The notes under the pieces: generated by a model
Told to the model about the DNA's origin: nothing
Databases searched by the model: none
What the model saw: the letters and a program-made list of their open reading frames with translations, nothing else
Part shown: one piece after another, positions 31,322-63,185 of the stretch
Position numbering within the stretch: position 1 is the first letter of the stretch
How the letters are laid out: every line of letters starts with the position of its first letter
Translations under genes and position numbers: made by a program
NCBI RefSeq assembly: GCF_964194025.1
Contig: NW_027453588.1
Coordinates: 1 to 64,000, forward strand
Reading direction: 5' to 3'
DNA from: Convolutriloba macropyga
Taxonomy: Eukaryota
Length of the DNA stretch: 64,000 nucleotides

Positions 31322-31323
31322 AT

Positions 31324-31340
31324 TGGTCCGCCGACCCGGA
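31324..31340 (+). promoter_or_regulatory. BEL primer binding site (tRNA-Tyr-like)
   Basis: TGGTCCGCCGACCCGGA 2 nt after the LTR, resembling TGGTCCTTCGAGCCGGA (complement of tRNA-Tyr 3' end). Confidence 0.6.
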
Positions 31341-31441
31341 CAAAAACAATAACACGAACAGCAACAAATCTTCGATTCAATTTGGTGGACTAGAACGAAA
31401 TCTTTACGATGGCAGGAAAGAGCCCCGATAGACATTGGAAA

Positions 31442-32403
31442 ATGACTGACTACAAGATGTCAGGCCAACTCAAGAAGCTAGAAAACGAGCAAGATGACTT
31501 TTGACGGACACCTTGCTGATGTGAAAATTCACTTGGCTGAGAAGAAACCAATACCTCTGGAAAATATCAATGTTTCTTCGAGACGTACGATGATCTTAAG
31601 GAAAACAGAAAGCAGCAGAGGCAACACTTGAAGTCAAAGTACTTAGAAAGTTTCAATGGCGACACCGAACAAAAATTGGGCGAAAAGAAGCATACACACA
31701 AATGGTTGGTTGAACAAATACCAAAACTTAGAAAAATAGAAGACTATCACAACTGCGTTTTCAACCCACGAAAACACACCTTGCGGCTCTACACAATGGC
31801 GAAAAAATGTGAATCGTTTTTATAGAGAAGCAAAAAAAGTGGAAGAAGAGTTGGGATCAGAAAATTTAGACCACTCACGCAAGCAAGCTTTGTGCAGTAA
31901 ACTGGAACAAATAGTAACGAAATTAGATTCAAGTCACGCAGCAATTATACAAATTGTGAAATCAGATCTTGCTACGGATTGGTTGAAAAGTTTATGTGAG
32001 ATTAAAATCTATTTTCAAGGCCTACTAAAGCAATATCAGCAAAGCGCAGAGAGTGGAAATCAAACGTCGTTAGTTTCATCAACATCGGCTGGTGATAAAG
32101 ACCCAAAAAAACTGTAATTGATACATGAAATGGAGCGATAGAAAACGCCGAAGGGAACGCGGAGGTCTCTTCCAGGCCTTCTGCTACACACGGAAGCCGA
32201 AAACAACCCAGTATCGCCAACTAGCGATCATCGAGAAGGCGACAGATAGATGAAATGGAGCTCGAAAAACTAAGAGCTAAGAAGGAAACATAGCAGCGAC
32301 TGCGAGAGCGGCAGTTGGAGTTAGAGCAGGAGCGTGAAGAAATATAACTTCGTTGCCAGCAAGAAGAATTACGTTTACAACAACAGTAGAGCGAACAAGA
32401 GTT

Positions 32404-32445
<42 letters not shown>

Positions 32446-35400: not shown

Positions 35401-37703
35401 TAACAAATAACGATGAAGTCAAGTCGCAGATCCCAGAGACAGACAAGTTAACGAAAGTTTTGAAAACTATCGAAGCAGAACCACAATCATCTTCAATCCT
35501 AGGACTCAACTGGAATGTGGATACAGACAGTCTCATTGTCTGTCGTGGAACTTAGCAATAAGTTCCAGCAAAAATAACACAGAGAATTGTCCAATCCTTC
35601 GTCTCAGCAGTGACTCTGATTGATGCTCTGATTTGAGAGAAATAAGGACGATGTCAATTAATCGACTTTGTATCGGAAACGGATGTTCAAACTTGAGACT
35701 ACACATTTTCACAGACGCTTCAGAAGAAGTGATGTGCATCGTCGCATATATGCAAGACTAGGTGACGTTGAAACTCACTTATGTGACAGGAAAAAGTCGT
35801 GTGGCACCCATCAGACACATGACAGTACCAAAGGTAGAACTCCAAGCGGCAGTTTCCGAAGTTTGTCTCAGAAAGCAGATACTCAGCGAACATGATGTCA
35901 GAATTGACAAAGTCTATCATTGGACCGACTTATCAACAGTGCTGCAGTGACTACAAGAAGCGCACAAGAAACAACAAGTGTTCGTTGCGAACAGAGCAGC
36001 GGAAACACTGGAAAACTCATCGAGGGATGAATCGAGACACGTCAAAGGTGTCGAAAACCATGCCGACATCAGAACCATGGCTACAACAGAGCCACGAAAA
36101 CTGGCCAAAGCCGTGGTGCCAAGTGATCGAACTCGAACCCGAGCAAGTTACGAGTACTGTAGCAACAGAAACTAAACTAGACCAACTATTTGGCTGGAGA
36201 CGATACAGTGCCTTCAACCGAATTAGAAACTTCCTTGCCTCATGCAAGAGGTTCAAGACGAAGCAGAGGGGTACCCTCAAAGCAGACAAAAATAATCAAG
36301 CAGAACAAATACTGTTTCGATTTGTTCAAAACGAAAGCTTCCTGAATGTTTCAAAGTCGATAGCAAACAGCAAATAAATCTCCAAAACATTCAACATAGC
36401 CACCCTTCATAGAGGAAGATGGAACCATTAGAGTGAAATGCCGACTGAAGCATTCAAACCTTGACTACAATGGAAAACATCCAATATTGTTAACCGCGAA
36501 ACATCCAGTTGTACAAATTCTGTTGGAGAAAGCACATCGAGACAACCTACATGAGGGCACAGAATACGTGAGAAACTTGCTCCAACAAGAATACTGGATC
36601 ATCGGATTAAGAAATGCATTAGAAAATCAAATCGAGGTGCTTCAAATGGAGACACAGAAATGCCAACCCAATCCACCCACCGATGGCCGACCTACCCCGA
36701 GAATGACTTGATGAACATGTGTTCCCACTCACCCATAACGGAGTCAACTATTTCGGACCCTTTGAAGTGAAGTTACTACGACATACCTTGAAGAGATGGT
36801 GCTGCCTCTTCACTTGCCTGACACCGAGAGCAGTGCACATCGAAGGTGCACAGTCATTGGACACCGAGTCATATCTAGCTGCAGTGAAAAAATTCATTAC
36901 AAGACGTGGCTACCTGAACACCATCATCAGTGACAACGGAATAAACTTTGTTCGAGCAGCCAATGAGCTGAAAGCATTCATGAACGAGTGGAACAAAGCT
37001 AAGATTGAAAGTGAATTAGCACAGAAAAAGATAGTTTGGAAATTTAATCGTCCCGGAGCTCCTCACTTTGGTGGAATCTGGGAAAGACTGGTTCAAAGTT
37101 GCAAGAAGTTCATGATTGCAATCTGGAACAACTGAAGCCTCACTGAAGAGGTACTCAGCACAACGATGTGTCTTGTGGAGCAAACACTCAATGCAAGACA
37201 CCTGACAGCAGTAAGTAACGACGCAAAAGATTTGACAGCACTCACATCTAATCATTTCTTGCTAGGAGGAAAGAGCGCAAGTGCACCATTCAAGCCTTCC
37301 AGGGAGGGCTACAGTGACCTGAAAAAAATCATTCGAAACGGCTCAAGCACATGCCGACATGATCTGGAAAAGATGGACTAGCGAATGTCTTCCACAATGG
37401 AACCAGAGATCGAAGTGGTCAAAAGAACATATGCGAAACCTGAGAGAATGCGAGTTATTATGGCTAGTAGATGACTCTCTGAAGCCCTGTGAGTACAAAC
37501 TGGGACAAATCATTGAGATCTTCACTGGTAACGACGGTGTAGTGCGATCAGCGAGAGTCAAAATGGCACATGGAGAGCTAAACCGGCCAGTCGTGAAGAT
37601 AGCGGCAGTATTCTACGATGGTGTTTCTGAGATCGAAAACAGGGTCGGCGATGTTGGCGCCTCTTCAAATCAGCTAGAAAAGCCATCAGATAGCCAGAAA
37701 TAA
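31442..37703 (+). pseudogene. BEL/Pao gag-pol polyprotein, many stops and frameshifts
   Basis: DUF1759-type LPKLKL..GDPLEWPEWSGLF; knuckles CPFKDGQHPIWTC and CFNCLRPGHMSKDC; protease CDSGSS; RT WYLPH, GPDLLQSL; RNase H HIFTDASE, VPKVELQAA; integrase GVNYFGPF, ISDNG, PHFGGIWERLV; C-terminal DUF5641-like region. Confidence 0.92.
32403..32451 (+). repeat. (CAA)n microsatellite encoding poly-Gln in BEL gag
   Basis: About 13 perfect CAA units within a Q/E/R-rich coiled-coil region. Confidence 0.9.
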
Positions 37704-38640
37704 CGTTTGAAACTGAAAAAACTTAGAATTAGTCAAAACTCAAAAATGGTTAAAACTGAAAATTTTTACAAGTTGGGACCAAAAATCTGTACACACCCTC
37801 CCCGATTTTTGGAAGGGCAAACCTGAGCAACCCGAGGTCATCGCACACGGTTAGGGTTACCTGTAAGCTACTCATGGACCTAATGAACGTTATTGCATCA
37901 GACCCACAAGTGTGGCTATTAGCACTTATATGGTGCAAAATTGGCATTATTTGATATTTTGTTATTTTTTGTTAAATTTCTTAAGTTGTTTATGTTATGA
38001 CACTTTAGATGACCACTAAAGGTCAAATACCTTACATCCGAGGTGTTTACAGCCACATAAAAGCCATCCGTGCTTATGTCAACAAAAGTAAATACTGCAG
38101 TAATTTGACATTTACTATGTAAACAATGACCTAAATCATTATCTTGATTAAACAATCAGAAACCACTAGTGATGATGTTACAAATGACAAATATTTGATT
38201 ACTTACTTTAAACCAGTTGTTTGATTAGTGAAACCGAATTGTATTTAGAACCATTAGAAACTGTTATACAGAGCAGTTGGCTCTGAGATTGACTAAATTT
38301 TGATTCTTTAACAACTTTAGTCTTTTGCTAAGTTTTGTTAGATCTTAAGATCTTGCGAGTTTTAAGTTAGTTGAGCTTATTCACAAGAAGCTGGCAAGTT
38401 AACTAACTTTGGCTGAAGCCTTACAAACTTCAGCACGAGATTTGACATAGATTATCTTTAAAAATTTTCTTAACTTCAATCACGAAAATTAAAGTTGCAG
38501 TCCTTTAATACGTCCCATCGACTAATTATTTCTGCGAGATCATTAGACAATCGGCTCCAGTGAACAACCAGGCCGGCGTATAATTCGAGAACTAGGTTGT
38601 GATGTATCAGTTCCGCTGAGATTCTTGAGCAGCCGCAACA
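37652..38640 (+). repeat. BEL/Pao 3' LTR (989 bp)
   Basis: Same termini as the 5' LTR; preceded by purine-rich GAAAACAGGGTCGGCGA. Confidence 0.92.
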
Positions 38641-41175
38641 GTTTTCTTGTCAAATTATCGTATTATTGACAAGTCCAATTAAAGGAAAACATAGTAGGGA
38701 AAAAGCATAGCGTTAGAAAAAAGTGTATCTGATTTTTAAATTGCTTTTGATATATAGTGTATGCTTTTTGGGCTGAGAAAAATTTACCACGCAAAATTGT
38801 GTGGATTTTTTTGTTTTTGCCTATGTTTTTCTTTCTTTTTGTTGCTATACGCCATATACCTAATATTAATAGATCTCGATTGCATCCCTTGGACGTAAAA
38901 TTCAACTTAATTAAAGATTTCAGTTCACAGCTGTTTGTTTTAAAGACTTTAAAATTGAAATAATAGAAAAAAATTTCAACTGTTTCATTTTTGCTTTCAT
39001 TTTCGTAACCGTGTAGCTCAACCTCACTTATTAGAAGTCTCAATTACTTTTTTTTATTCAAACAATTTTTTGCGCTGGATTATACGTTGCGACTGATTGC
39101 TTCGCACATTAATTTCATAAAAATTTTTAGGCTTTTATACTGTTCATTTTCTGGGTCTTTTCTGTTGTCATGTCTACGTAATCCTTTTATAAGGAAGACT
39201 TATTGATGCTAAAAAGAAGACAAAGTGAGAATTTACAGTTCTTGCAGGTAACATCTCATATTTATAGTGCCTTGAAGAGTGTGATCTCGTAAAATTGTTT
39301 CAGGTTTTGGCTTCTTCCTATAATTTTCATTTCGTAAGGTCGTGACTTAGTGTCATTTTTAACAGGCCCAATTGGCTTCCTTAGGTATTGCAACCCAATC
39401 CATAGCTGTTTGTTGAAATCTTAAGTTAGTCTGTTATGACTTTTAAAAATTTTTGGTTTTCAGAAAAATAATTGGGTTTTTGAGCTTCGTCATTTTCTTA
39501 AATAACTTTTCGGTCGGTTAATAGCTCAGTCTCTGTAAACACGGGTCACAACCCGTTTCCAGTGACTTATAATTTAATCTCTATAACGGTTTTAGCTTCA
39601 AACGTTTGTTTCTTGGCTTTGTTATTACTCTTACTATGAGATTTGATAAAACATTTGAGATTTTTTTAATTTGTGAATTTTATATTATTTTTGTTTTCTT
39701 TTTGATTTAAAACAATAATCGTAGGTAACAATTGGCTTTGAAATTTTGCGTAATTGAACTTTGGATAATGACATGTCTCAATTGCTTCATATGGAGATAT
39801 AAATGAACATTTTAGGGATTTCATCGAAATTATTTCTTTTCAAGAAAAGAAACGTATTTTTGAGCTTCGCTCATCTTTGCTCTTTTTGTCGACCTATTAA
39901 CGTGTCGCATTGAGGACAGATCCAATATTTTTTCTAATGATGTATAGGTTGAAATGTGTTTTTAGGTTTTATCTGATGCGAGTTTGATTTTGGTGTAATT
40001 TTATTATTATAGAAATCGAGTTTTGGTGGTTAGCAATATTTGTTGTTTGATATTTATTATTGTCCTTTCTAGCAGTCCTGTTATCAATAACGTTAATCGG
40101 CCCTCTATGGTGACATTATTGTATTCCATTGGTTGTATATGGAGCGATATGTATGGTTTTGAAAGTTTTCTATCTCTTCATCATTTGGTAGCCAATTAAA
40201 TCAAGAATGTGGATGAGCGGGGTCGGAACCTTATGTGCGTACGCACATTACCGGGCCTCCTTGTTTACTACGAACTTATCCAACTTTTGATATTTAAACT
40301 TATTTGATCCTCGAGCCCTAGTTATGGGCATGTTTATATGCATAAATTTTCTTTCAGCTTGACATACATTGCCGAAAAGCATAATTGTCTCACAGTGTTC
40401 GAACACTATAAAATTACATCATTAACCGAGACTCCACGCTAAATTGAATATTCTTCGAAAGTTGAGCTGATTTTTCAAAAAAGCTTTTATTTTCAATTGG
40501 ATAATATAACGTCTTACTCTATGATAATTAATTATTTACAGGCTTTATGTATAATCAAACTTTTTTGGTATTGAGCAATATTGTGGTTGTTTTATATCTC
40601 TTCAGTTACTGTCACTTTAAAGTTGAAAAAAGATACGAATCGCAATAAATGTATCAATTTTTCTAATTTAAAAATATTTGTAGCATTGTTATTAATGCAT
40701 GTTGGTAATCAATGAATTTTCTTTATTAAACCCTCAAACCTCTGGTCATTTATTTTCACTTCAATTTAGAAACGTCATTATCTCAGAAAGTTCCAAGATA
40801 ACTTTTGCTGCTGAAAATAATTTTTTGTCAAGACGATCCGATCAAAACTAATATTTGACGAGGTTTTATAGATTATATAAAAATCGCATTCTTTAAGTAG
40901 TTGCGGGAACATAATTTGTTCAAAAGTTTGTTCTACCTTGCTGCTGTTTGAAGCCAATTTTAGCCAAATTTAATTAGTTGGCTAAGAGTTCAATTCAATT
41001 TAATTTTGTTTTATATTCTTCATTTTTGATTCGAACGTAAATCGTATGGCAAAACTGAACTAAATTTCCACTGCTAAGTTATCATAAGTTTTTAAAACGA
41101 GAAAAGTCGAATCATTCTGTAATACTTTATTGTATCAACTAAAAATTTAACTAAAAAGAACTAAATTTACAAAAA

Positions 41176-41896
41176 ATGGCCTTTGATTTTGCCGCAAACA
41201 TTTCTTCACCAAATATAAAGCTGCCTGCACTTTTTAACCGGCTAACTGATTCAATGCTTAATTTTAAATTGAACACTGCAGAAATTTTTAGCTCAATTTT
41301 TGAAGAGGACCCGGAGTGCTTTGCTGGTCACTTGATCGTAGCCGCGTCTCAATTGATTGAAGATTTAAGCGGCGTCAGTCTGGACAAATGTGACGAAATT
41401 TATAAGAAATTGGGGGATAAAGTTACAGATTGGGAGAAGAGATGGTACAATGCCGTTTGCACAATCAGAAATGAATCGGCGAGGAAAGGTTGCAAGATCC
41501 TCATTGACATGCTCTCACTGTATCCCATGGATCTCATAGCTATCCTGATCGGTGAATCGATAATGTCAGCTTCGGTTGATAAACTATTAGTTCGCGATAT
41601 GTTCAGCCGAGTCGTGCCCTATTACGACGCCAATCACCCTTACAAATATTGGGTCGATAGCATGCTCGGGTTCTCATTAATAGAAACATTTTCGACTGAA
41701 CGTGGTGAGCAGATGGTTCTCAAAGCTTTTGATATGGAATCAAAACACCCCTTGACAATTCACAACCTCTGTCACGCTCTAGAATATACTGGAAAAGCGG
41801 AAAAGGCACTGGAGTTGATGGAGGACAACTTGGAATATTATGAGAACACAGCCATGGGAGTGCACAATTGTTTTCACATTGCCTACTTACAGGCAG
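41176..41896 (+). CDS. TTC38: TTC38-like paralog B, exon 1
   Basis: Same length (721 nt) as paralog A exon 1 and same donor context GCAG|GTTTG; TIHNLCHALE, MGVHNCFHIAY. Confidence 0.8.
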
Positions 41897-42747
41897 GTTT
41901 GAACACTTTTATGTTAATTATTATATTTGTAGCTATTAGGGTACTCAAGAGAACCCGGGTTGAGTTTTCAACTCATAATGTAGAGAGTTTTGTTAATTGC
42001 AACGAAAGCATAAGTATTTTCATCACACAACTTATAAAGCGGTTTGAGGTGAATGATTTTTATTCACTACAATTAATAAAAACATAGCAGGACATACATT
42101 TCAAAAGAATTTTCATTGTTTAAACAAAAAATAGACCTATAATGGACTATGGCTGGAGTGGGCAAACCATTTCGAAAACTATTCTATCAAAAAAATTGAA
42201 AAAACAGTAAAAATCGAGCCAAAAATGCCTCATGTGAACAAAAAACCACTAGCAAGAAAGCCAATATTAGCTCATACACAGTTTTACGCTCTACTTAAAA
42301 ATTAAAAAGAAAAAAGTTCACACCGCAAAACCACTCGCTTCTTCATTCAACTTCCTGTTTCGGCGTGACCAAAATCATCACTCCAATTTGACTTCAAAAA
42401 TTATAAAAAAATTTTGAACAGATCTTAACAATGACACCGGAAACGACTCGGAGTATTAAATTGACAAACCTAACTAACATAATCAGCCTCATAACTCTTT
42501 ATGTTAATCAATTTTATACAATAACAGACAAATTAACAATGGAAAAATAACTGACGACAAAAGTTGACAGGGAATTTGATAAAAAATTTCAATGAGAGGA
42601 GCAACTCCAAAACAACTACCTGCAAAAACCATTCGACACAGTTTGTTCTCATGCAACAAACAACTGCCGATTGACAGAAAAAGCGACAAAATAGCTGAAA
42701 TAACTTAAAAACGAACTGATTCAGCAACGATAAATTCTTGCCAAAGA

Positions 42748-42751
<4 letters not shown>

Positions 42752-42797
<46 letters not shown>
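42752..42797. repeat. (TA)n microsatellite in paralog B intron
   Basis: About 23 TA units. Confidence 0.95.
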
Positions 42798-42798
<1 letters not shown>

Positions 42799-42945
42799 CA
42801 AAAATTTCACAACCAAGTTTAAATAAATTTAAATCAAAAGATTTGCCATGCGTTCTAGAGGTACCCGTTTATATAACTGTTGTAGCATATTCAGACCTCG
42901 TTCAGAATACCATCCGATCTGTGAAACACTTTTTTGTTTTTTCAG

Positions 42946-43574
42946 AGTTCGGAAGATTTGACGAAGCGCTAGACATTGTTGAGACTCAAATAATTGACTC
43001 TATTGACAAAATGTCTACACTCAGCGACACATGTGGTCTGTTGTGGTCTATGAAAATGGCCAATCATACTGTGAACAAATCGTCATTCTCAAAACTTCTC
43101 GAGAAAGTTGGCGATAAAATGAACAATCACGGTCCTGCTTTCTTCGCGGCTCATTTTGCGGCTGCAATGATAGGTGCTGAAAAGTATGATACATTGAAGG
43201 CTTTCAAGAAATCGGTCAACACTTTTGTTCAAGATTTCAATCATCATGATGTTGTTAGAAAGTATGAAAACTTTGGGTTTTCAGTCATGGATTCATTTGA
43301 TGCGTATTCTTATCAAGATTATTCAACTGCATTTGCAAAGATCTACGACGTTGCACATGAAATGTTTTCGGCTGGCGGAAGTCAAACTCAACGCGAAATT
43401 TTCAACAAACTAACTTACAGTTGCGTGGAGAAGATGGAAACGGAGGAAATGGATAGGAAATTGTTCGGGTTGCTAAATCAGAAGGCTGCATACAGGGCTC
43501 TTACTCCATCTTCGGAACGAAAATATCAACTGCTCAGTCAAAAATTGTGTTTTAATTTATATGAATGTCAGTGA
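42946..43574 (+). CDS. TTC38: TTC38-like paralog B, exon 2 (joined CDS 449 aa)
   Basis: Acceptor TTTTTTCAG|AG in the same phase as paralog A; EFGRFDEALD, GGSQTQREIF; stop TGA ending 43574. Confidence 0.8.
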
Positions 43575-47490: not shown

Positions 47491-48594
47491 TTAAGTGAAG
47501 GATAAAATGATCCTTAATTTTTTAGTCTCAGCAATGCTTTAATGCTCTAGTCTCTAAGTTCTCAGATCCCGACAAGGCGTTTCAGAACACTGAGTTTATC
47601 AGAATTTCACTTCACAGGAATGGAGTTTGATATAATTGTACGTATATTCATTGATCGTGTGGTACATTGAGCAGTGCAAACCCCTCATTTTATAGTTTTG
47701 CCATTCACTTTAGATCTGATTTAATCTTCATTTATTTGTTGACTTGATCTCTAAAATTTTACTACTTTATTTGAACCAAATTTAGAAACCCGTCACCAAC
47801 TTGTAATTGCATGTTTAATTGCAAGTTATCACATGATACATGATTAATTGTCTGAGGCGGAAGAAAATTTTAAATTTGTTCATCTCTTCTAAATTTGTTT
47901 ACCCAGTTGTCAGACAATTCGTGAGAAAACGTAATCTAAATTCCAGTTGAAACTTGTAAATTGACCATAAATCGTATCCTCAGTTTTCAATTAAATATTC
48001 AGTTGATTTTCTTATGTGTAAAATTCATCCAGCAGATCCTGGTTTAAATTTCTAATAAAGTATACCTGTTTTAACTAGTTAACCAAACAACCAGAATTTG
48101 CGTTCTAACAAGAACGAATTGAGCAACACCTCGGAAGACACTACTTTCTATTGAGCCCTTCGTGTAACGAACAAATTCAGAGCCACAAATACGATAGGAG
48201 AAATAGAGGATTTAGTTGAGACTGGCAGCTCTGGATGGGAAAAACATAGTCAAACTGTCACCCGAGCCCCAAATTGTGAATCCAAATAAATATCCGACAA
48301 AAAAGTGGCAGACAAATAAGTCAAAGTCAACTGAAGCTACAAGGGGACCATAAATCCCACCAAATCTCAAGAAATTTAAATCCTGCGTGGAGAGTGCCAA
48401 TAGGCTTTATGGGATCAAAAATTTGTTGTGCTTCGAAAAATTTCCATCTGTTTCGATTTTGTTTTGTTTTTGGGAGAAAACTTTATAGCAATCCAAAATT
48501 ACAATTCCCATTTTCCTAAAGGAGTTTTTCAATAATGCTCTGTTTTTCAGATGACCTTGTGGGGAAGTTTTTGGGTCCGAATTAGTCTCCTTTC

Positions 48595-50116
48595 TGTAGA
48601 ATTTGAAAAAAAAACTGGGGTGGGGGAAATTCCTTATTCAAATCCCAACAATTGTAATTATCTAAATTTTCGCTAAAACAGAGAACTAGAGTAGTGGTAA
48701 CTTCGAGTGCCTATTATCCTAAAATAACAGAAAGGGTTATACCAGGCCCTTCTATTACTCCTAAGATTCAGATTGGAGGCAGTCGTTTGTATTAAACAGT
48801 AATTATAAGGTTCGATTGAGAGTTGTCTAACCTCAGCTAAGACCTAAATATATGGAAAAGAAAACAATTATGAAATAGGTGGCACTATAATTGAGAAGTA
48901 TACCAAGTTCCCATACAACTATTTAATACTAAGAGATCAATCTAAGATCCTAAAACTACTAAGTGTGAAGATGAAGGGAAGCTCGTCGTAGTTCACTCCA
49001 CAACCCAACCAGCCGAGTATTAATCAACTTGAATAGAACACTAAGACATTGCCCATCATGTACTTCAGGCTACTGCAGACCGTGACAATGTCTACCAGGT
49101 TCGCCATTCCATACTACATGGGTTAACTTAGCTCGCCAAGTCGTCAACGATCAGGCAGCCCCGACCTCAGAGTGGCTTTCACTATTCAGTCTCCTAAAGG
49201 AGCGCGGCCGATTAATACTCTCAGAAGCACTCGTCTCGAAAGCGTCTGTAGTTCCCTTCTCCAAGTCCAAGTCCCGGAAATCTTAACTTAACCTAATAGT
49301 GATTGATCTCTGTAAAACCACCTATGTATCCTAAGATAGACATGTTAAGTTCTGGTTTAATGCCAATTTATAACTCTAAGAAATTACTTGACTTAGAAAT
49401 TAAAGATTGCAAAGTTACCACAGACCTTATTCCTAACTAAATCAAAGTTATATTCAACCAAGGTGTATTCTCAAAAAGTCTACTAACTATTTTCTATTTC
49501 TCTATTCGATCTCTGAGTCTACACCGACTCTATCGAATAATCCTAAGAAGTTAGAAAAATCGAAACTAAGGAAAGACTATTACCGCTGAGAATAACGAGG
49601 ATTGTATAATAAGCAGTGAATTAAGAATCAGGAAATTGGGTTAAGAAAACGGCTCAAAAATCAGCCCTATTTATACTCATTATCAGTGCGAAAAATCAAG
49701 ATACAATACTAATCTTAGCACCATGATTTATAGTGGGGGTCGTACGGGATACCGAATATGGTTTACTTCTACAAAATTCCTAGAAATCAGTCGCGAGGAA
49801 TACCATTTATAGAATGCATTTGCATTTTTCTAAGAATTCATTCACACTTCCAGAGATATCAAAATCAGTTAAAACATGCTGAGGAGAATAATCTGATTTT
49901 AATAATAGCTATCTAGAATCATCATTTTGAACCGAATATTGGTTAACAGTACCATTTCTCAAAGATTCATTTATATTAATTTACTCTTGTCTTGATAAAA
50001 CTGGTAAGTTAAATTTTCTATAGTTTGAATCAAGATTAATTTCGGATTCGGTTTATACGGTTCAAATATTAAAGGTTAGTTCAATTTTCTACGTTTCTAA
50101 GTTTCTATATTCTACA
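48595..50116 (-). repeat. Gypsy 3' LTR (1522 bp)
   Basis: Direct repeat of 58805-60325; adjacent to PPT. Confidence 0.95.
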
Positions 50117-50128
50117 CTTCTCCCTCGG
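50117..50128 (-). promoter_or_regulatory. Gypsy polypurine tract
   Basis: Minus strand CCGAGGGAGAAG immediately before the 3' LTR TG. Confidence 0.75.
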
Positions 50129-50229
50129 ACTCAACTATTCACCTGAATAGTTATAATTTACCCCAAGTGATTAGCGCCAATATGTGAGATACAGGGTAAT
50201 ATGAGATTACAAGAAATGTACAACACTCA

Positions 50230-52318
50230 TTAAAATGTGGAAGACTCTAGTTTATTCTGATCCCTGACCCTACAAAGTAACTCTGTGTGCTGTGTTGGGT
50301 GTATATTGTTCCCTGATTCTTCATTGTTATCTTCACGACAAGGCTGTTCCTTTTGTTTAGAGCATAATTTCTTGTGTTTCTATAGTAGAAAAGCTGCTGT
50401 AATACAGATAGTTGAAATCCATAAAAACAGTCCCAGATAACTTATCGCATTTTTGAACGTTCCACCGGCTGCGTTTTTTATTGATCGCTCTTGACTGTGC
50501 TGGTGAAACTCCCGTACTAATTTTCTGATAGTTCCGGTGTCTATTTCTAGTGGTGGTTGCGCCTGTAGTTCAACTTTTACATGTTCCAAAACTTTTCTTT
50601 TGTAGTCAAATGTGGCACTTAGTGAGTTCAGATTGTGGGTTTCTGGGGTTGGCAAGGTAAATGCTTCCTCAAGTAAGGGGTTGAGGCTGACCTTCATGAC
50701 AAGCCCAGATTCGTTCTGACAACTGTCTGTCGAGAGACGAAGAATCAACCTTCCGTTAGGTATTTCAATTCTCCCATTACAAGAAGGTTGTACAATGCAA
50801 CTCTGACATCCTCTCAATTTACTGCTCTTTAAGGTGTTTTCTGCGATGTCAGTTATCCAGTATTTTGTAAATGCCGACAAAATAAGGAATTTTGAGTGCT
50901 CCAGATAGGTTGCCGTAGGTATTATTGGTAGATGAATGACATCAAATTTGCAAGTTTGTAAAACAGCTGCCTCGTGACCGGAAAACAGACTGATCAGGCA
51001 ACCAGCTTGTTGGTTTCCAGTCATTGGGAAGGGTTGTTCGCAAAGTTTCAGTCGTTTCGAACCTTGACAGGAGAGAATATGTGTTTCATCAACTTCGGCA
51101 AAGTTTGTCGTAGCTTCCGAGACGACAAGAAGTTCATGCTCGAGTACAAGCACTGAAGCTGTGGTTGAATTTGTAATAGGTTGCGGAAGGGGCACTCCTT
51201 TAAAGACCTTATGGATAGGGCTTTGACTTGACATAGGGATTTCGATTTTCAATAGGAGTCCATTGTTTCCAATAAAAACATTACGAAGTAGTTCAAGTTC
51301 ATAGTAGAGACTAACATGCTGGAGTGGTATTGACATCGTCTTGCGATGGAATCGAAGGGATTGTAAAATTTGTCGTAGTTTGTCTGGTTCAACAAGTCTT
51401 GATGGTATTCTTCCGTTCGACATGTCCTGAAAAGCCTCTCGAACATTACTATTGAATTGCTTCAGCTCATATTTGAAGGATTGCAGTTCCGAATGAAGAG
51501 ATACTAGCGGGAAGGAAACGTTATTGAACACACTTTGTGTTTTGAGAAAGAAGGTGAACACGTCGCTCCCCTTGTGGTCGCAGACTTGGGCCTGCTGTAC
51601 TTGTTCCATATCTTGTTCAAGATTGTTAACAGGGTTCTCTACGGTTCCGAAGTTCCCAGCCCTATAGTTCAAGATAGTTTTCATTTGTTCCTGCTGTTTT
51701 AGTTTTTCGTTGCCCAGGATGTGTATTGTGTTGTCTGTGTCGCTCGTTAAATGGTGTAGCTTGTACTCCATGCTGTCTAAGTGACTTGCAATTCGCCGCA
51801 TCTTTTCTTCTGAGTCCTGACAAAGATGGAAGATGGAGAGCATTTTGCAAGCTGTTTTTTCTACTATGGGCTCCAAAACAAGTGCGGCAGCAGCTCCCGC
51901 TGCAAGCAAGGTTACTGACCTTCTCATCTTGTCCGAGAGCTTGGTAGAGTTTGCAAAAATCTTCACATCTCGAATCAGCTGTGTCCTGTCTTCTTCGATC
52001 TCGGAAATATCTTTTTTGCAGTGACGTGATCAGGGTATTCTGACTGTTTTCGACGATGCCGTTCAACTTTTGGTTATTGCAATATCCCCATTGCGCTTCT
52101 CTCCACACACGAGTCTCCATTTCCTTCAGGGTTTTTGAAAAATTGCTAAAGGCGCTCCAGTTAATGTCCAAGGGTTTTCGAAAGGGTACTGCAATTTCGA
52201 TCAATTCAATTGAATCAGCCAGAGCAATCGGAGTCTGTGGGACAAATGCAATGTTTGCTCGGGTTGTTACTTCTGCTAGAGTCAACCGGATAACAAGAAA
52301 AAGATAGCACCACTCCAT
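50230..52318 (-). pseudogene. env: env-like class I fusion glycoprotein (F-type), ~695 aa reconstructed; one frameshift and one premature stop
   Basis: Signal peptide MEWCYLFLVIRLTLA; KMRR|SVTLLAAGAAAALVL cleavage site plus fusion peptide; heptad repeats; Cys-rich ectodomain; TM YLGLFLWISTICITAAFLL; removing one base from the T6 run 52012-52017 joins ORFs 52318 and 51966; TAG at 50380-50382 interrupts a basic cytoplasmic tail that stays open to TAA 50230-50232. Confidence 0.85.
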
Positions 52319-52907
52319 CTAAATACTTCCAAAGTTAGAAAAACTGCACTTGAAGCGAAAAACTTTTTCTATACTGAGACCTAATTTTTTTTATTCTAGG
52401 TTGTTTCATATTGCTCTTTCTTTTTTTCAAAGAACTATTTTTTTTCTAACTAAAACTAGGCTATTATTGAATTGCCTTTTGTTCAGTTTTTCTTTCTAAT
52501 GCCACAATTTCTTATGCTTATTTCTAATATTTTTGTTGTTGTCTGAAACTCTAATTAAACCTTAAAAAACTCAGATGAAATTCAAATGCAATCTGGAATC
52601 CGTTTCGACGACTGTTGTTTTGCCTAAAACGTTATCTGAAGTCTTAATCAAGACTTTTTTCTTTAAGGAAAATTTTGATACTTTTATTTTTGGTTGGCTA
52701 CAAAAAAAAGGAGAAAAATTTTATTAGTCCATAGTGATTATTATTATAAAAGCGTTCAAAGTACATAATCTAGAAAATTAGTTTGTTCCTGTCTTAAGTC
52801 TAAAGTCGAGTTTGTTATGATGATTCTTCATAGGTGCTCAGATCAGGGTTTCATTCGTCATTGATTCCGTATCTCTTGGGGAATCGTTTTGCTCGTTTTG
52901 GACGTCC

Positions 52908-55900
52908 TTATGTTTCCGAGATCAGACTTGGGCTCGGTGATTCAAGGTTGAGTGTTGTTGGTGCTCTCTTTACCCCTTTCAATACATGAGGTCTCTGCAT
53001 GTCCATGAACTGCGTGTTGATAGTCTTCTCTGGAGTAGTGTTCAGTTGATGCGTTGTCTCTGGTAGGTTTGCAAGTTCAGAGGTTGAGGGTGGGGTCTCC
53101 AGATTGACCTCTGTCATGTCCTTTCTCCCATCAGATGCGGTCAGTTCGGTTGCCTGCGTTTCTTCAACATCCTGGGTCTTGTTGTCCACCTCTTCTCTGA
53201 CAGATGAAGTTCTCTCCCGTTCCTCAAACAGGTTGTGAAAGAAGTCATCTTCTTCCTTCATCCATCTGTATCTTTCCAAGTTTCGAGGGAGAACCCTTCG
53301 TGCAGAGTTCCTCGAGAAGAATCACGGATTTGCTGTTTCCTCCTGGTCATCCGCTTCTCCAGCTGGTGGCCGTCTTCCTGGTGCTGGGCGAGTGAGGACT
53401 CTGTGTTGATCAGTTTCTTCTTTTACGGGTTTCAGTCTGTTATAATGTACAATCTGCCATTTGTTACAGGTACCCGTTTTCGATTTTTTATAGTGCACAT
53501 CAGAAGTTTTCTCTAACACAACGTAGGGGCCGTCCCACGGCAGAAAGAACTTTCTCGATTTGGCTTTGTGGGGAGCGAACAACCAGACGCGATCACCGTT
53601 GCTGTAGCTTTCTCCAAAAATTTCTTTATGATGTCGGTCTTTTTGTCTGTCCTGGTTGCATCCCAATGTTTCCCTGGCGTTCATGTGGGCTTCAAGAAAT
53701 TGTTCCTCTAGCCATCGGGTGAATTCGTAACTTTGGCTTTCGTGACCTGGTGCTTTGGGTAGAAGTAGGTCGATTGGGTATTTGCACTCTTGTCCGTATA
53801 CCAGAGAAAAAGGGGTATGACCTGTTGTTCTGTGCACTGTTGTGTTGTAGACGAAGCTCAGATATGGAAGCATTTCGTCCGAAGTGTTCGGATTTCCAGC
53901 GCAGTACTTCGATACAACATCAGCAATTACCCAATTGTGTCGCTCAACCATTCCGTTGCCTTGAGGGTGGTAAGGCCAGGTCTTTGTTTTCTCCATTCCA
54001 AACAGCTTGCAGAGTTCCAAGATCAATTCACTGCAAAAATTTGAGCCCTGGTCAGTGTGAATTGAGTCCGGGGCCCCAAACATAAGAATCCATTTCTCCA
54101 CGATTGCTCTTGCCACGATTTCAGCAGTTGTGTTTTGTAAAGGTGTGCTAACTACATATTTTGTTAAATAGTCCGTGAGTACGAGAATATATTTGTACCC
54201 TCCTTTTGTTTTGGTTACTGGACCCAAAATGTCTGCGGCAATTTTGTTGAAACAAATTCCGACGTTGATCATTTGCAAGGGTACTCTCCGTTTTTTCCCA
54301 GCTGTGGATCGCGACTGACAAGTTAAGCAGTTCTCACATTTCCTCTCGATGTATTTTCTCATGTTTGGCCACCAGAATCGTTGCCTGGCTCTGTCGAGTG
54401 TTTTCTGAAACGCAAAGTGTCCTCCACTGATCTTGGAGTCGTGTAGTTGTTCTAACACCTTTTCTCTTAGACTAATGGGCACTACAAACTGTCTGATAAT
54501 TGTATTTGTTCCCTCCACAAGGCACTTCCGGTATAGAACCCCATCTGCAAGTTCCAGTTGTTCCCAAACACTCCAGAGTGCCACCGCATCTTCCCTGGCT
54601 GCAATAGCTGCTGCTTTCTTAACGTTGAGTTTGCCAAGGGATGTTTGAGTACCATTCTCGTCTGCGTTGGCCCATTGAAAAACGATTTTTATTGCAGGGT
54701 CCTGAGCTTGGTGTTCTCTTGCTGCTTCGCTGCCCTCCTAAAGGATAATTTCCATTGATGCCTTTTCGTTTTCGGGACTGTTCAATTCGAGTCCATCAGA
54801 ACAGCCAGGGTTTGTGGGTTTGTGGTCATTCGAACTCTTCCCCATTTGGTATTGCTTGGGGAGTCGTTCTCCTTGACAGCTCCACAATTTTCGAGCTGGG
54901 TTTCGTTGGGGTAGTTAGTGTCTTCGGTGATCTCCGGATTCCCATAAAACTCAGTTTGGCTGGAGTAATCACTCTCCACATCGGTTGACCAGCTGAGTCC
55001 AATTTTGCTTCTTGATGCCCGCTCTGCCAGTGCAGCTTCAAAAAGTTTCTGGAAACTCATTCCGTAGGGAATTTCGTATTCGTCGTCGTCGTCGCTTTCC
55101 TGCTTCGTCGTCGAGTTTTATTTTGTTGGAGCAATTCGGAGTCCGCGTTCTCAGGTCCGCAATCTGAATCTGTGTCCGTTTCTATCCATTCTGTAGTCCC
55201 ATCTTCGAACTCGTGCCTGTTGAACGTACGAGTTGTTGCTATTTGAATTTTGGAGAGTCGTTTAGTCTCTGAAGAACATGGATTAAGTTCCGGCGAAGTC
55301 ACCATTTGGATATGGCCCAGAGCTTCGCTCAAACTTTCAGCTGGGGGCAGTCGCCAAACATCTCTTTCTTCTCCTCCTCAGTCAGTTCGGGGGTCTGGCT
55401 ACACTGTTGTGAAAGTCCGTCTGCATTTCCATGTTTTTCGCCAGGGCAATGAACCACCTGGAAGTCAAACTCTATGAGTTTTTGTAGCATTCGAAAGATC
55501 ATTCCATCGTTGTTCTGCCTGAACAGCCATTGAAGCGAAGCATGGTCCGTTCTCAACACGAATTTCGTACCCCATAGGTATGGCTTGTACCATTTCATTG
55601 CCTGGATTACAGCTAGGGCCTCTCTTTTCGTTGTTGAATATTTACATTCTGCTGGCGATAGCACTCTGCTTGCAAAAGCAACGGGATACTCAACACCATC
55701 TATGACATTTGAAAGTACTGCGCCCAAACTGTTGTCACTTGCGTCTGTGTCCAGCACGAATGGTGAGTTGTAGTCCGGATGAGATAAAACCGTGCTTTCG
55801 ATCATTGCAGTTTTTGGACTCTCGAAGGCAGCTTGACAGTCTGGTGTCCAGGTGAATCTCCTATTCTTCTTCGTGATCTCGTGTAAAGGTTTGGCTATTC

Positions 55901-57310
55901 CTGCGAAGTCCTTCACAAATCTTTGAAAATAGCTGCAGAATCCAATGAATGATCTCACTTCTGTGACGTTTTCCGGCCTTTTCCACTCCTTTAGGGTTTT
56001 GATTTTCCCCTCATCGGGTGATATTCCTTTGGCACTTAATTTATATCCTAAGTACGTAACTGAGTTTTGGTACAATTTGCATTTCTTTGGCTTCAACTTC
56101 GAGTTTGCTTTCCTGAGGGCTTCAAACACAATTTGCAGATGTTCCTCGTGTTCTTCCTCTGACTTCCTGAAGACTAGATTATCGTCCAAAAAGATGAGAA
56201 CAAAGCTGAAGATTTACACGTTAAAAATTGCTGTCATCAATCGTTGAAAAGTGCCTGGGGCATTGCAGAGTCCAAACGGTAGTCGCAGGAACTCGTAGTG
56301 ACCACCATCTGGAGTAACGAATGCGGTTTTGGGTATCGCTGGCTCTGCTAATGGGACCTGCCAGTATCCGGAGGCTAAATCCAGGCTCGAAAAAACCTTG
56401 GCTCCATGATGATGATCGAGGATTTGATCGATTCTGGGTAACGGGAAGGCGTCTTTTCTCCTCACTTCGTTAAGTTTTCTAAAGTCTACACACATTCTGT
56501 TGCTGCCGTCCTTTTTCGTAACAAGTACAATAGGTGCGCTGTAGGGGCTTTTGGATGGCCGGATAATATTCCGTGAGAGCATATCTTCAATTTCTTGTTT
56601 CACAACTGCCATCTTCCCTGGCGCGAGTCAATAGGGAGCAAGTTTAATTGGTCAAGCGTCTCCCGTATCATTATCGTGTGCCACTAGATGAGTTTGACGC
56701 AATTCCGCATCGTTGAGGGCAAAAACATCTCGAAAACAGGCAACTGTACTCAATGTCTTGAGTCCAGTTTCGTGATCAATTGATCAGTTGAATCGGATTT
56801 CACTAGATTGCAGATCACGTTGAGCTCATCTTCTGACGTTGGTTCGAGAGGGTCGTTTTTCTCTGTTTGTAAGGGATCACGGCCTTGTAACTCACTCTCC
56901 GCGCCGCAAACCTTGACTTGTCCGGGTTTTTTTTGTTTTCCAATGGAATGTCAAACTCACTGTAATGCTCTCTGTGCCCATCATTAGTTGCCTGGACTGA
57001 AAGTTGATCGACATTTGATTCTCTTGAGTATGGTGTCCCTAATATCAAGGGTACATCTGTGTCCGGGGTGACAAGAAATTCCGTCTGAACAACCATACCC
57101 GGACCGAATGCAAGGACTCCGGTGAATTTTCCTAGAATGCGGAATGGTTCGTTCGTTGCTGATAAGACTGTATCGTGGAAGTCATATAGTAACATTGGGG
57201 GTGAATAAAGTTTGTACGTCTGTTCAGATATAACATTCACGTTGCTACCGGTGTCTAGCAGCGCTCTGTGCAACTTCCCGTTCAGTTTAGCATCAACATA
57301 AACAGTAGGT
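52908..57310 (-). pseudogene. pol: Gypsy pol (PR-RT-RNaseH-INT with GPY/F), several stops and frameshifts
   Basis: ALLDTGS; RMCVDFRKLN, LPFGLCNAPGTFQR, FLDD; LDTDAS, HGNADGLS; HHCC zinc finger, DQGSNF, GMVER, WDGPY, VHYNRLKP; acidic C-terminal tail 53279-52908. Confidence 0.95.
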
Positions 57311-58364
57311 CCAAAGATGCTGCTATTGTTCTCGATACTCGGACTGTTAAAACTTCATGTCTCCGCGCCCTCTGCAAAATCATCTTAACAACTGGCTGCG
57401 TTTCGGCGTTTCCATCTTCTTGTCGTCTTGGAGCAGTGCTACGCTTAGGGCAGCGACTCGCAAAATGCCCCCAATCTTGACAATGATAGCATTGTACGTT
57501 GCTGTTCCGATCCACTCTTGCAGGGCTGCGCGATGTTCTCGGGGCTGGTGCAAATTCTGTTAGAAACCGACTCTGTCTATCTAAGATCCGTTCCAAGATC
57601 TGCGTGTGACGTTCCTGTTGCTCCAGTAACTTGTTGAAACTCCTGATTCGGTTTTCCATCAAGTCACTGAGTCCAATGCCAACATTGGTTGATAGGTCTC
57701 GGATTTCAGTTTTTCTTCCACTTTCATCGTCGTCACCTTGGGTCCAACGCACATGTCTTGTCCGCCTTGGTCGATATCGGGCATTCTCATCTTTCGCAAT
57801 TGCTTCGAGGGTTATGGCTCTTTGGGCGGATGCATTGAAAGTGTCTGGGTCTTCCTTGAGGAGGGTGTATCGTATTTCACTGTCCAGCAGTCCATCGATG
57901 AACGCGTCCTTATTAGCTTCCTGCCTTCCTGCTGCGTTCAAGTGAGCGTTTGCTGCTTCGCCCAATTTTCGAACTCTTCGAGAGAATTCTTGAATGCTCT
58001 CCCCTTCATTTTGCTGGAGGTTCTTGAACTCGGTTCGTGCACTTCTTGCATTAGGAAAATCTCCAATTCGATTGTTAAGTGCATTGAGAACCCGCTCGAT
58101 CGTCGGTACCGGCTGTCCTTATACTTGAATAAGGTACTGATTTGGAAGGTTGTAGTACTCGTCCAGTGCGTAGTTGTTCAAGCAAGTGGGGAGAACTGCT
58201 CGCTGCCTGGCATCGTTCCAGTTGTTCGCCTGAGCCATCGCTTCGAAATGGCGTATCCATCGCTCGAAGCAGTCGAAGTCTTTGCTCGGATAACTTAATG
58301 GAGTTAACGGTGGAGCAGCCACTACTATTTGCTGCTGGGCGTTGTTGTTGTTTGCGTTTGCCAT
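57282..58364 (-). pseudogene. gag: Gypsy gag (capsid plus one CCHC knuckle), one in-frame TAA at 58119-58121
   Basis: ORFs 58364-58119 and 57965-57282 are in the same frame; FERWIRHFE, LQQNEGESIQEF, FIDGL, CYHCQDWGHFASRC. Confidence 0.9.
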
Positions 58365-58785
58365 TTGTTTTTCAAATTGTGTTCTACGCTGGTAATGTTA
58401 GTTTCTCTTTCTCGCAAAACTGTTTCAACACTTTGCCTTCGTTTTGAGACCCCGTGTCAGCGATTTTGATTTTCTTTTCAAAACAGAAATCAAAAGCAAA
58501 AACTAGAAACTACGAGTTGTTGATTTGGATTCACAGTAATTCAAAAATTAAAACTTTTTTACTATTGTGTTAGTTAGCAGTCAATTTTTGTTAATGCCGT
58601 GCTGATGTAACTTTTCTACTTGGATCAGTCTTTATTTCTTAATTCATCCTTTTTTTTGTTAGTACAAAAGTATTTTTTTTTGTTTTCACTGACAGTTCGT
58701 TAGCCCGGCTCGCGATCTTTATTCTATACCCAATTACTATCTTTTTTGCTAGTTTCTGATAAAAATTGTTTTTTTAACAATAAAT

Positions 58786-58803
58786 ATCCCTCTGTGGTCG
58801 CCA
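58786..58803 (-). promoter_or_regulatory. Gypsy primer binding site, tRNA-Arg(TCG)-like
   Basis: Minus strand TGGCGACCACAGAGGGAT 1 nt from the LTR; plus strand ATCCCTCTGTGGTCGCCA resembles the 3' end of animal tRNA-Arg(TCG). Confidence 0.75.
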
Positions 58804-58804
58804 A

Positions 58805-60325
58805 TGTAGAATTTGAAAAAAACTGGGGTGGGAGAAATTCCTTATTCAAATCCCAACAATTGTAATTATCTAAATTTTCGCTAAAACAGAGAACTAGAGT
58901 AGTGGTAACTTCGAGTGCCTATTATCCTAAAATAACAGAAAGGGTTATACCAGGCCCTTCTATTACTCCTAAGATTCAGATTGGAGGCAGTCGTTTGTAT
59001 TAAACAGTAATTATAAGGTTCGATTGAGAATTGTCTAACCTCAGCTAAGACCTAAATATATGGAAAAGAAAACAATTATGAAATAGGTGGCACTATAATT
59101 GAGAAGTATACCAAGTTCCCATACAACTATTTAATACTAAGAGATCAATCTAAGATCCTAAAACTACTAAGTGTGAAGATGAAGGGAAGCTCGTCGTAGT
59201 TCACTCCACAACCCAACCAGCCGAGTATTAATCAACTTGAATTTAACACTAAGACATTGCCCATCAGGTACTTCAGGCCACTGCAGACCGTGATAATGTC
59301 TACCTGGTTCGCCATTCCATACTACATGGGTTAACTTAGCTCGCCAAGTCGTCAACGATCAGGCAGCCCCGACCTCAGAGTGGCTTTCACTATTCAGTCT
59401 CCTAAAGGAGCGCGGCCGATTAATACTCTCAGAAGCACTCGTCTCGAAAGCGTCTGTAGTTCCCTTCTCCAAGTCCAAGTCCCGGGAAATCTTAACTTAA
59501 CCTAATAGTGATTGATCTCTGTAAAACCACCTATGTATCCTAAGATAGACATGTTAAGTTCTGGTTTAATGCCAATTTATAACTCTAAGAAATTACTTGA
59601 CTTAGAAATTAAAGATTGCAAAGTTACCACAGACCTTATTCCTAACTAAATCAAAGATATATTCAACCAAGGTGTATTCTCAAAAAGTCTACTAACTATT
59701 TTCTATTTCTCTATTCGATCTCTGAGTCTACACCGACTCTATAGAATAATCCTAAGAAGTTAGATAAATCGAAACTAAGGAAAGACTATTACCGCTGAGA
59801 ATAACGAGGATTGTATAATAAGCAGTGAATTAAGAATCAGGAAATTGGGTTAAGAAAAGGGCTCAAAAATCAGCCCTATTTATACTCATTATCAGTGCGA
59901 AAAATCAAGATACAATACTAATCTTAGCACCATGATTTATAGTGGGGGTCGTACGGGATACCGAATATGGTTTACTTCTACAAATTTCCTTGAAACCAGT
60001 CGCGAGGAATGCCATTTATAGAATGCATTTGCATTTTTCTAAGAATTCATTCACACTTCCAGAGATATCAAAATCAGTTAAAACATGCTGAGGAGAATAA
60101 TCTGACTCTAATAATAGCTATCTAGAATCATCATTTTGAACCGAATATTGGTTAACAGTAACATTTCTCAAAGATTCATTTATATCAATTTGCTCTTGTC
60201 TTGATAAAGCCGCTAAGTTAAATTTTCTTTAGTTTGAATCAAGGTTAATTTCGGATTCGGTTTATGCGGTTCAAATATTAAAGGATAGTTCAATTTTCTA
60301 CGTTTCTAAGTTTCTATATTCTACA
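58805..60325 (-). repeat. Gypsy 5' LTR (1521 bp)
   Basis: Direct repeat of 48595-50116; about 28 substitutions and 2 small indels by eye (~98%); adjacent to PBS. Confidence 0.95.
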
Positions 60326-63185
60326 CTTTCCGTTTTAATGGTTAAGCAAAGAACTCAATGGCCTCAAAAAAAACGTAGATCATATCTGTCCACGAAAAGG
60401 TAAATTAGTTCATTCAAGGAAAGCTTGTTCAATCAGTTATCTCTCTTTACTAAAATAAATAATGTTTGGCTGACCAGACGCTAAATAGTCCAAGAAAAAC
60501 AAAAGGAATTGCAAAATTTTTTGAATGAGGAAAATAAAACAGTCAGCAGTCTCGAGATAACAGTCTCGATAATTTGCAAAAAAAATTAAATTCTTAGTTG
60601 TTGCTTTTTTTTCTATAACCAATCCCAACAACAGCGTAAGCTGCGTTGCATTTAAACTATAATATTAAAAAGGAAACAACGAAGAATTCAGGAAAATGAA
60701 GAATCGAAACGGAAAAAGCAAACAACAAACAGTTAAAATGAAATTCCACAATAGTTATGCAGATATTTATAAATAACAAAAAGTTTATATAGTGATTAGC
60801 TAAAAACCAAAAGCAAAACTGAAAGAATTACGTAAAAAAGATCATATGGGAAACACTATAACTACTCTGATCAGAATTTTAATTTGGCCAATTGTAGAAA
60901 CGGTAAACAATGATCAGTCAATTAGCTCTGGATTCGAAGATGCTGAAAAAAACAAATTTCAAATGTCAAACATTGACTCTATTATCTGGAGAATTTCTCA
61001 AAATTTAAGCCAAAATTTATTGCAAGCCCCAGCATGCCTTTTGCCGATAGTTTTGAATTCTGCTTAAAGTCGATTTTTTCATCTTGATGAAGTCCGCCAT
61101 TCCAAATTAAAAATTGTAAGCAGTGATATGACAAGCGCATTCCACTTCAGATTTTACAGTGTAACTGATATGCCTGCTGAGTTACATAGAACAAATGACT
61201 CTACACTAACAGTTCACAAAAAAACGTCATGTTGCCTTGCAAATAATTTGATACCGGGTAAGGGCGATTAAGACGATCATATTAAATTATCTAAGAAAAT
61301 TTGAGCTAATTTGGATGAAGAAAAACAAATTTTCAACTTAAAAAAAAACAATTATTATAATAATTTCGCGTCGGGAAAACAAGCAATTAATGAGGAAAAC
61401 TCTAAAACGGTGAATCAAAACAGCAAAAAAGGAACTCAGTTAGAAAAATTGTAATTACAACTACTTCTCCAGCATTATATATCGGTAATTCTAATCTAAA
61501 ATACAGTAGTCTTACTATAAAATTTGGTTAACCGCTTTGTGCCAATTTACGCGCCAAAAAGAAGTGTAGTTTAAAAACAGTATATTACATTAAAATTTCT
61601 CCGATTTACCTAAAAATTTTAACAATGTACTGCTCAGACTGAGAAAAAAACTACAAAAAACCAAACACACGGCTCCCATAAGTCAGATTCATTGATAAAC
61701 CTGGCCTCCCAAAGCACCCCATATTAATACGACATCTACACCAGCCTCAAACGCTTCTACCTCAACCGATGTTACCTCTTCAACGAACTTACACAGTGAT
61801 TCCTTCAATTTCGTACAGTCAAAAATCTGTACCAACAACCTCTCTGCCAGCGTCACATCGAAAGACGTCGCCTAAAATTAACAAGAGGCTGCATCATCAC
61901 TGAGAATGATGTCACGTATAAATTTTTGTTGCCACAAAAATACATCGTTTCGGGAAGGATTTGCACGTCAAATCAGAAATGCGTAGACGATTAAATAACA
62001 ATACCCAACTCAAACAAAGACGGCTGCGTCAAAGTTTTAGACGTCACTATCTTGGGAGTTGGGGAATGACGGATCTAGCCGCTTTTTTTCAATTTGGCCG
62101 TACATGAACAGGGAAATTTTGACAAAAACGGCAAATGGCAATTCATGGGTCAAAATAGGTAAAAATTTGTTACCTATAATAATTTGTTACCTTATTCAAA
62201 ATGGCATTGATAGAAGAATTTCAATTAAAATATTCAGATTTTTTTTAAAGCTATATGCAAAGGCAAAGCGTTTCTGGGCAATTAGTTTGGATCAAGCATG
62301 ATGTCAAAACTGACAAGAAAATCAAGTATTTTGCGAACAAAAAAATGGTAACCGCGACGCCAATACACGATTACGGAGAAATCGAATAGTGGGCTCGCTA
62401 ACGCAGACAGAAAAGAGTCGTCTAGCGTGTATTGAGGAAACAGCTAAAAAATTTTATTCGAAAGCATGATGTAAATAATTTATATATCAACTCTGAATCT
62501 ACAGACAAAACATTAAAAGAACATCGCTTGAACCATGCTACGGCCGCAAACCAAATACAGCCATGAGCAATATAAAAACATTTCCAGATCTGAATAAATT
62601 GTACTATAAACCAATATTCAGCAAAATTATAGACCTCAAGACACTCAGTTGGGATCAGCTGCTATCTGATAAAAATGGAAGGTAGTAGGACTGAGCAACT
62701 ATGAACTGGAGGTCAAAAGAACAAAGGACCGAATTAAATGCAAGATGAAACAACCCGGAAAAAAGTCCCGAATGATTAATCACACGGATAAATTTTGCCA
62801 ATCCCAATCGCTTAGCCATCTCATGCTCTGAAGTTGGCTAAAAACTAGCCTGCGAATAATAGAGCTATAATAGGTTGGGACGGCTGGTCTGAAATTTTCG
62901 ATCCGAGATTGTCAGTAATCAATCCTGACGAATACACATCAATTATCCAAGAGCCGGGTAACATATTGAAAATTTGACATCGTAAAAATTAGGACGAAGG
63001 CAGAAAAACTATTGATCTTGCCGAATGTATCAAAATAAGAGCTACCCCAATAACTGAGAAAGCAACCGACAACAAGAACCTAAAATACGCTTAGGACGCA
63101 CGAAATAAATTGAAAGGAAAATTGACAAAGTAAAGTAAAAAAAATCGAATGACTACGCGAAAGGCATTTCTTCACAACATTCAAT

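Follow-up and report, generated by a model that had tools for sequence, protein, structure and literature searches.

The 64,000-nucleotide stretch analysed here (the window) very probably contains a dead copy of a Ty3/gypsy retrotransposon that carries env and has the architecture of the 'ancient errantiviruses', residing in the genome of a Convolutriloba acoel or a close relative. The direct basis of this reading lies in the anatomy of the element, the F-type fold of its family's envelope protein (Env), the decay of the copy and the host genes found in the same window. The copy would have been inserted whole and have decayed afterwards without selection.

Anatomy and class of the element

The env-bearing LTR element lies at 48595–60325 on the minus strand (11.7 kb) and comprises the following features, given from its 5' to its 3' side:

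60326–60330, no strand: target-site duplication on the 5' side of the element (CTTTC on the plus strand)
58805–60325, minus: 5' LTR with TGTA...TACA ends
58792–58803, minus: primer-binding site (PBS), tRNA-Arg (UCG/UCU) type
52854–58364, minus: gag-pol, with gag (including a CCHC knuckle), protease, RT, RNase H, an acidic spacer, a 'mini' domain and an integrase with a GPY motif
50117–50126, minus: polypurine tract (PPT)
48595–50116, minus: 3' LTR
48590–48594, no strand: target-site duplication on the 3' side of the element (CTTTC on the plus strand)

The LTR pair is 98% identical, with 28 substitutions and 3 gap columns among 1523 aligned columns (K2P 0.0186), and transitions equal transversions (14 vs 14). 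The LTR holds no ORF longer than 66 codons, and a search of Rfam returned 0 matches. Contigs from four of seven listed related sequencing runs (X1, X2, X5 and X6) were compared with the window; in X1 and X2 the summed contig depth over parts of the LTR (48595–50116) was 10–100 times that over the internal region, which suggests many solo LTRs or an embedded repeat.

Pfam domains in gag-pol follow the order gag, CCHC knuckle, protease, RT, RNase H and integrase, which is that of Ty3/gypsy elements, and a GPY/F module is present. The closest named pol relatives are Ty3-G type polyproteins (~39%), and env, whose ATG at 52318 lies ~535 bases past the end of pol near 52854, forms a third ORF (ORF3). 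On the sequence features of LTRs, PBS, PPT and target-site duplication, together with the order of pol and the position of env, the element is an env-carrying Ty3/gypsy element, i.e. an errantivirus in the operational sense. The last 10 letters of its PBS are the same as those given, under Arg_UCG_UCU 3' ends, for nine polychaete F-env elements (PMC13524379, supplement 1). Among the pol relatives, P0193–P0207 form a tight group at 52–62% identity, with clusters of up to 624 members, after which identities fall to 40%; the group is possibly an acoel-wide gypsy clade.

The survey of Chary and Hayashi (eLife 2026; PMC13524379) covers 1512 env-carrying Ty3/gypsy elements across metazoans, with Env of F-type or gB-type, and describes an 'ancient' errantivirus group with one RNase H and a 'mini' domain made up of a helix plus three strands. 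A structural model of a sister pol piece (P0316) has helices at residues 188–241 and strands at 246–249, 252–258 and 265–270, all at a pLDDT of ~90, preceded by a disordered acidic spacer at residues 1–185 (pLDDT under 50), and neither Pfam nor the model revealed a second RNase H (pseudo-RNase H) in this piece. The predicted structure of P0316 therefore fits the single RNase H plus 'mini' domain of the 'ancient' group, as matched against the description in that paper only (PMC13524379). In the window copy the pol bridge, at ~54750–55330 on the minus strand, includes an acidic unstructured stretch ~150 residues longer than in the closest relatives.

The envelope gene and its predicted fold

Between integrase and PPT lies the gene for which the original prediction had proposed an F-type envelope protein of ~695 aa with an Ala/Gly-rich fusion peptide, interrupted by two lesions. 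Its features, including the bases just upstream, are as follows:

52319–52342, minus: candidate 3' splice acceptor immediately upstream of the env ATG (branch-like CTAAC, then TTTAG)
52013–52318, minus: env N-terminal piece, with signal peptide and first part of the F2-like subunit
52012–52017, minus: break 1, a frame switch in a six-base run
50383–52017, minus: env main piece, with the end of F2, fusion peptide, heptad-repeat helices, Cys-rich beta head, stalk and transmembrane segment (TM)
51919–51930, minus: basic cleavage site KMRR, off the furin consensus
51874–51918, minus: Ala/Gly-rich hydrophobic fusion peptide (hydropathy 1.9)
50383–50451, minus: TM, from hydropathy scan and model
50380–50382, minus: break 2, a premature TAG directly behind the TM, at which the sister proteins continue into a tail
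50230–50379, minus: cytoplasmic tail, 49 codons plus the normal stop of the family

The layout and the cysteine clusters named in the prediction could all be located on the minus strand, where a single frame of 549 codons (52029–50383) contains every motif: KMRR at 51930, SVTLLAAGAAAALVL at 51918, CQGSKRLKLC at 51069, GCLISL at 51003, TCKF at 50955, GCQSC at 50811 and SCNG at 50784. The signal-peptide piece begins at ATG 52318 in a different frame and has its hydrophobic stretch at residues 3–18 by hydropathy scan. The signal peptide, hydrophobic fusion peptide and TM that define an F-type Env are thus all found, by hydropathy scan and predicted model, and the frame said to stay open for ~50 codons past the TAG does so for 49.

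The env cluster has 25 members, and among the 15 listed four are full-length and uninterrupted (P0011, P0013, P0016 and P0018; 680–695 aa), while a fifth uninterrupted relative, of 628 aa, covers both break sites. P0011 and P0016, natural proteins of 695 aa from public assemblies, are 96–97% identical to the window env over residues 1–102 and 94% over residues 101–695; each differs from it at 31 of 694 residues, compared to 16 differences between the two. Since these uninterrupted sisters align to both pieces, the prediction was right, by the standard of the family, about the length of ~695 aa and about both breaks. A second uninterrupted env family of 702 aa, represented by P0022, is 46% identical. 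In total 521 relatives were found at E ≤ 0.001, of which 128 at E ≤ 1e-10, and cysteine positions are kept across the aligned rows (C417 in 65 of 69, C426 in 66 of 68), so that the resemblance is not due to chance.

The window env retains 17 of 17 cysteines relative to P0011 and lacks one of the six N-glycan sequons of that protein. Its cleavage site KMRR does not match the furin consensus R-X-K/R-R, which is matched in six of the eight sister proteins spanning the site and is present in 32 of 44 env homologues with letters there. A functional F-type Env is expected to have a single open frame and a furin consensus; the window copy has two breaks and KMRR.

Pfam assigned no env family to either window piece or to P0011. 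The Baculo_F family (PF12259) matches 13 of 69 env homologues, and P0022 scores above its curated cut-off. An env profile searched against PDB sequences matched a 'fusion protein' (9w4c, E 9e-14); haemagglutinin HA2 and spike S2, also among the PDB sequence matches, were rejected as relatives as their coverage is limited to the coiled coil. The ESM Atlas returned Baculo_F and Fusion_gly clusters at 0.91–0.92 with low recognition (1611), and this assignment is therefore a lead only. No relative was found in the viral_contigs database.

The fold was modelled on the natural sister P0011 as a monomer, rather than on the window copy, using an alignment of 68 homologues (the longer ones among 150 listed of the 521 matches at E ≤ 0.001). 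In the model (pLDDT 82.1, pTM 0.74) the fusion peptide lies between long helices, the Cys head is rich in beta structure, and the helix at the C-terminus leads into the TM. The best Foldseek matches in the PDB were henipavirus, respirovirus, mumps and human metapneumovirus (hMPV) F proteins, with E values of 1e-9 to 5e-7 at TM-scores of 0.2–0.3. In BFVD a myriapod-virus glycoprotein was best (4e-20), with granulovirus F at rank 3 (9e-17) and further matches to baculovirus, chu-like and paramyxovirus F proteins, while the top match by VIA-align was RSV F (Z 10.0, rmsd 7.8, 395 residues aligned). TM-scores of the structural matches of P0011 are low throughout (0.2–0.46) and rmsd values are high. 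As predicted from this model, which bears out the class I fusion fold expected of the gene, the Env of this family is an F-type class I fusion protein.

The composition of the fusion peptide had been said to recall paramyxovirus F, and the cysteine spacing to recall baculovirus and errantivirus F. Both resemblances stand, in that both groups are F-type, but they do not amount to a mixture: according to the available part of the survey, paramyxovirus and baculovirus F belong to one F superfamily, and a protein with a paramyxovirus-like fusion peptide and baculovirus-like cysteines is therefore not a chimera (PMC13524379).

By analogy with such proteins, Env in working members of the family most likely acts as a class I fusogen. 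As we infer from paramyxovirus F, baculovirus F and Drosophila gypsy Env, its translation would start at a separate ATG, on an RNA that is probably spliced. A host intron in the window has an acceptor similar to the bases just upstream of the env ATG, and env RNA may accordingly be spliced; no splice joint was seen among the contig rows listed from the four of seven runs. None of the seven was an RNA run, which has no bearing on expression. The protein would then enter the ER via its signal peptide, be glycosylated (at six sequons), form trimers and be cleaved at the basic motif to give F2 and F1. Once free, the Ala/Gly peptide could insert into the membrane of a target, with refolding of the heptad helices. 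Fusion of a particle, or of the producing cell, with a neighbouring cell may in this way carry the element into germline or stem cells.

Decay of the copy and alternative readings

Compared with sister pol pieces, gag-pol in the window copy contains at least seven in-frame stops (near 58121, 56654, 56630, 56216, 54740, 53324 and 52910) and ~5 frame switches (near 57354, 57020, 55345, 55110 and 54815), although the reference sister copies for some of the frame switches are broken themselves. A further four stops at 56786–56894 probably reflect a local frame disturbance and were left uncounted. Env carries two of the 13–14 lesions on 27.5% of the coding length (P 0.22–0.26), and is no better preserved than pol in this copy. 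Six of 17 listed env differences are synonymous, compared to 22–30% expected under neutrality; this is a weak test (P 0.16–0.40 for an excess) in which 660 further rows lay outside the listing and run X6 did not carry the alternative letter at four of the 17 sites.

Translation from the env ATG would yield an out-of-frame product of 218 aa (P0327). As the downstream piece also lacks a signal peptide, the window copy is not expected to make a fusogen. The copy also falls outside the definition of an 'intact' errantivirus as one with uninterrupted gag, pol and env (PMC13524379). Nor was a copy with gag, pol and env all intact seen among the matches listed, the longest pol pieces among the 15 members listed, out of 53, being of 1060 and 813 aa. 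The 31 differences in 694 env residues and the seven or more gag-pol stops represent more decay than would be expected from an LTR divergence of 1.9%, perhaps because the LTRs underwent gene conversion or because the copy was made from a template that was damaged beforehand.

It had been proposed that the copy is near-functional, the break at 52012–52017 being an assembly error and the locus still making a TM-anchored, tail-less Env able to fuse membranes. We consider this unlikely. The break does sit in a six-base run, the cysteines are all kept, the 5' LTR is whole, and the other run length at 52012 is found in contigs of X1 (44.9 of 84.2 depth units), X2 (599 of 778.9) and X6 (7.55 of 10.4; 0 of 2 in X5). 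However, the X1 and X2 contigs contain 0.40–0.42 of the window's words and lack its letter at the listed env sites, and by these letters they are other copies of the family. The gag-pol frame switches lie mostly outside runs of six or more, and the three gap columns in the LTR pair indicate that real indels occur in the window copy, for which real decay is also the simpler reading because of the many point stops. Moreover, env has not been spared relative to the decayed gag-pol, the cleavage motif KMRR is non-canonical, and the TAG deletes the basic residues behind the TM, which normally aid membrane anchoring.

The count of two breaks in env against 11–12 in gag-pol, and the presence of uninterrupted env proteins but no whole gag-pol among the matches listed, might instead point to domestication of env by the host as a syncytin-like cell-fusion gene, for example in the syncytial gut that acoels possess. 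This we regard as highly improbable, since the difference in breaks fits length alone and the gene lies inside a complete, young, multicopy element and is broken near its start; a syncytin would be a fixed locus whose frame is intact and under purifying selection, which does not describe the window copy. It is hardly credible that env was inserted on its own as an F gene of viral origin, or that it is part of a BEL/Pao or lokiretrovirus element: it lies between integrase and PPT within one LTR pair flanked by a target-site duplication, its companion pol has Ty3/gypsy domains with Ty3-G type polyproteins as closest named relatives, and no second RNase H was found, even though glycoproteins of invertebrate RNA viruses are among the top matches of Env by predicted structure and the Env of lokiretroviruses is likewise F-like (PMC9040795). 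A decayed copy of an env-carrying Ty3/gypsy element thus remains the reading we prefer.

Relation to known systems and to the host

The acoel element shares with the 'ancient errantiviruses' the order LTR-gag-pol-env-LTR and a multicopy state, an F-type Env with signal peptide, basic site, fusion peptide, F fold and TM, an RNase H followed by a 'mini' domain, and an Arg-type PBS as in the nine polychaete F-env elements (PMC13524379). It differs from them in that the window copy is not intact and the bridge of the acoel family has an additional disordered acidic stretch. Insect errantiviruses mostly carry a pseudo-RNase H (PMC13524379), whereas the sister pol P0316 does not. Lokiretroviruses similarly combine an LTR retroelement with an Env resembling Mononegavirales fusion proteins, but their hosts are vertebrates and their RNase H is dual (tether plus new RH), neither of which holds for the acoel element (PMC9040795); membership of that group was ruled out by RNase H arrangement and host.

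The solved structures of paramyxovirus and pneumovirus F proteins (Nipah, PIV, RSV and hMPV) share with the acoel Env the class I F fold and the F2/F1 layout. Identity is ~10%, however, the acoel Env is encoded by a retroelement, and no gene for an attachment-protein partner was seen in the element. The closest Pfam family is PF12259, that of baculovirus F and Drosophila gypsy Env, and granulovirus F ranks high in BFVD, as noted above, but the acoel family itself has no direct Pfam match.

Acoel genomes are dominated by LTR elements, and the Xenacoelomorpha branch at or near the base of the bilaterians. We found no earlier report of an acoel env element in the literature searched, subscription journals and repeat libraries being outside reach. 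The available text of the Symsagittifera genome paper does not mention env, envelope or gypsy (PMC9911081), and in the accessible part of another study two xenacoelomorph genomes were screened for relatives of retroviruses and none was reported (PMC9040795). The genome list in the available part of the errantivirus survey does not include Xenacoelomorpha, and acoel terms occur zero times in its text and seven supplements (PMC13524379). As that survey did not sample the phylum, the acoel element is a new phylum record of a known kind. F-type env gypsy elements are already published and the protein is therefore unsurprising; the value of the finding is taxonomic, in that the acoel F-type family is a further case on which to test whether env and pol have stayed together since the Precambrian, as has been claimed.

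In acoels both the germline and asexual offspring arise from neoblast stem cells. It is possible, if rather doubtful, that acoels host their own still-infectious enveloped Ty3/gypsy lineages which use an F-type fusogen to enter neoblasts; the suggestion is based on uninterrupted Env in two or more env families that are 46% alike. If true, env-pol partnerships would extend to the only major bilaterian phylum that the published survey lacks, and acoels would provide a non-insect system for the role of Env in inheritance.

The host genes in the window are two paralogous TTC38-like genes on the plus strand with one intron each (15693–18442 and 41176–43574), which are 97% and 91% identical to proteins of Convolutriloba macropyga, an acoel of the phylum Xenacoelomorpha, and 72–80% identical to each other's best match. 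The assignment of the host to that genus or a close relative is based on these two paralogues. A second, older LTR element lies at 30297–38643 on the plus strand, with LTRs ~86% identical and remnants of protease, RT, integrase and DUF5641, the last of which we take to point to BEL/Pao; it contains no env-like match. The window also includes a satellite-like array at ~20300–27470, composed of ~13 units of 535–591 bp of alternating types, with occasional internal duplications of 51 bp and no long ORF, and a fragment of a rhodopsin-family GPCR at 2229–2651 on the minus strand (7tm_1, E 2e-12).
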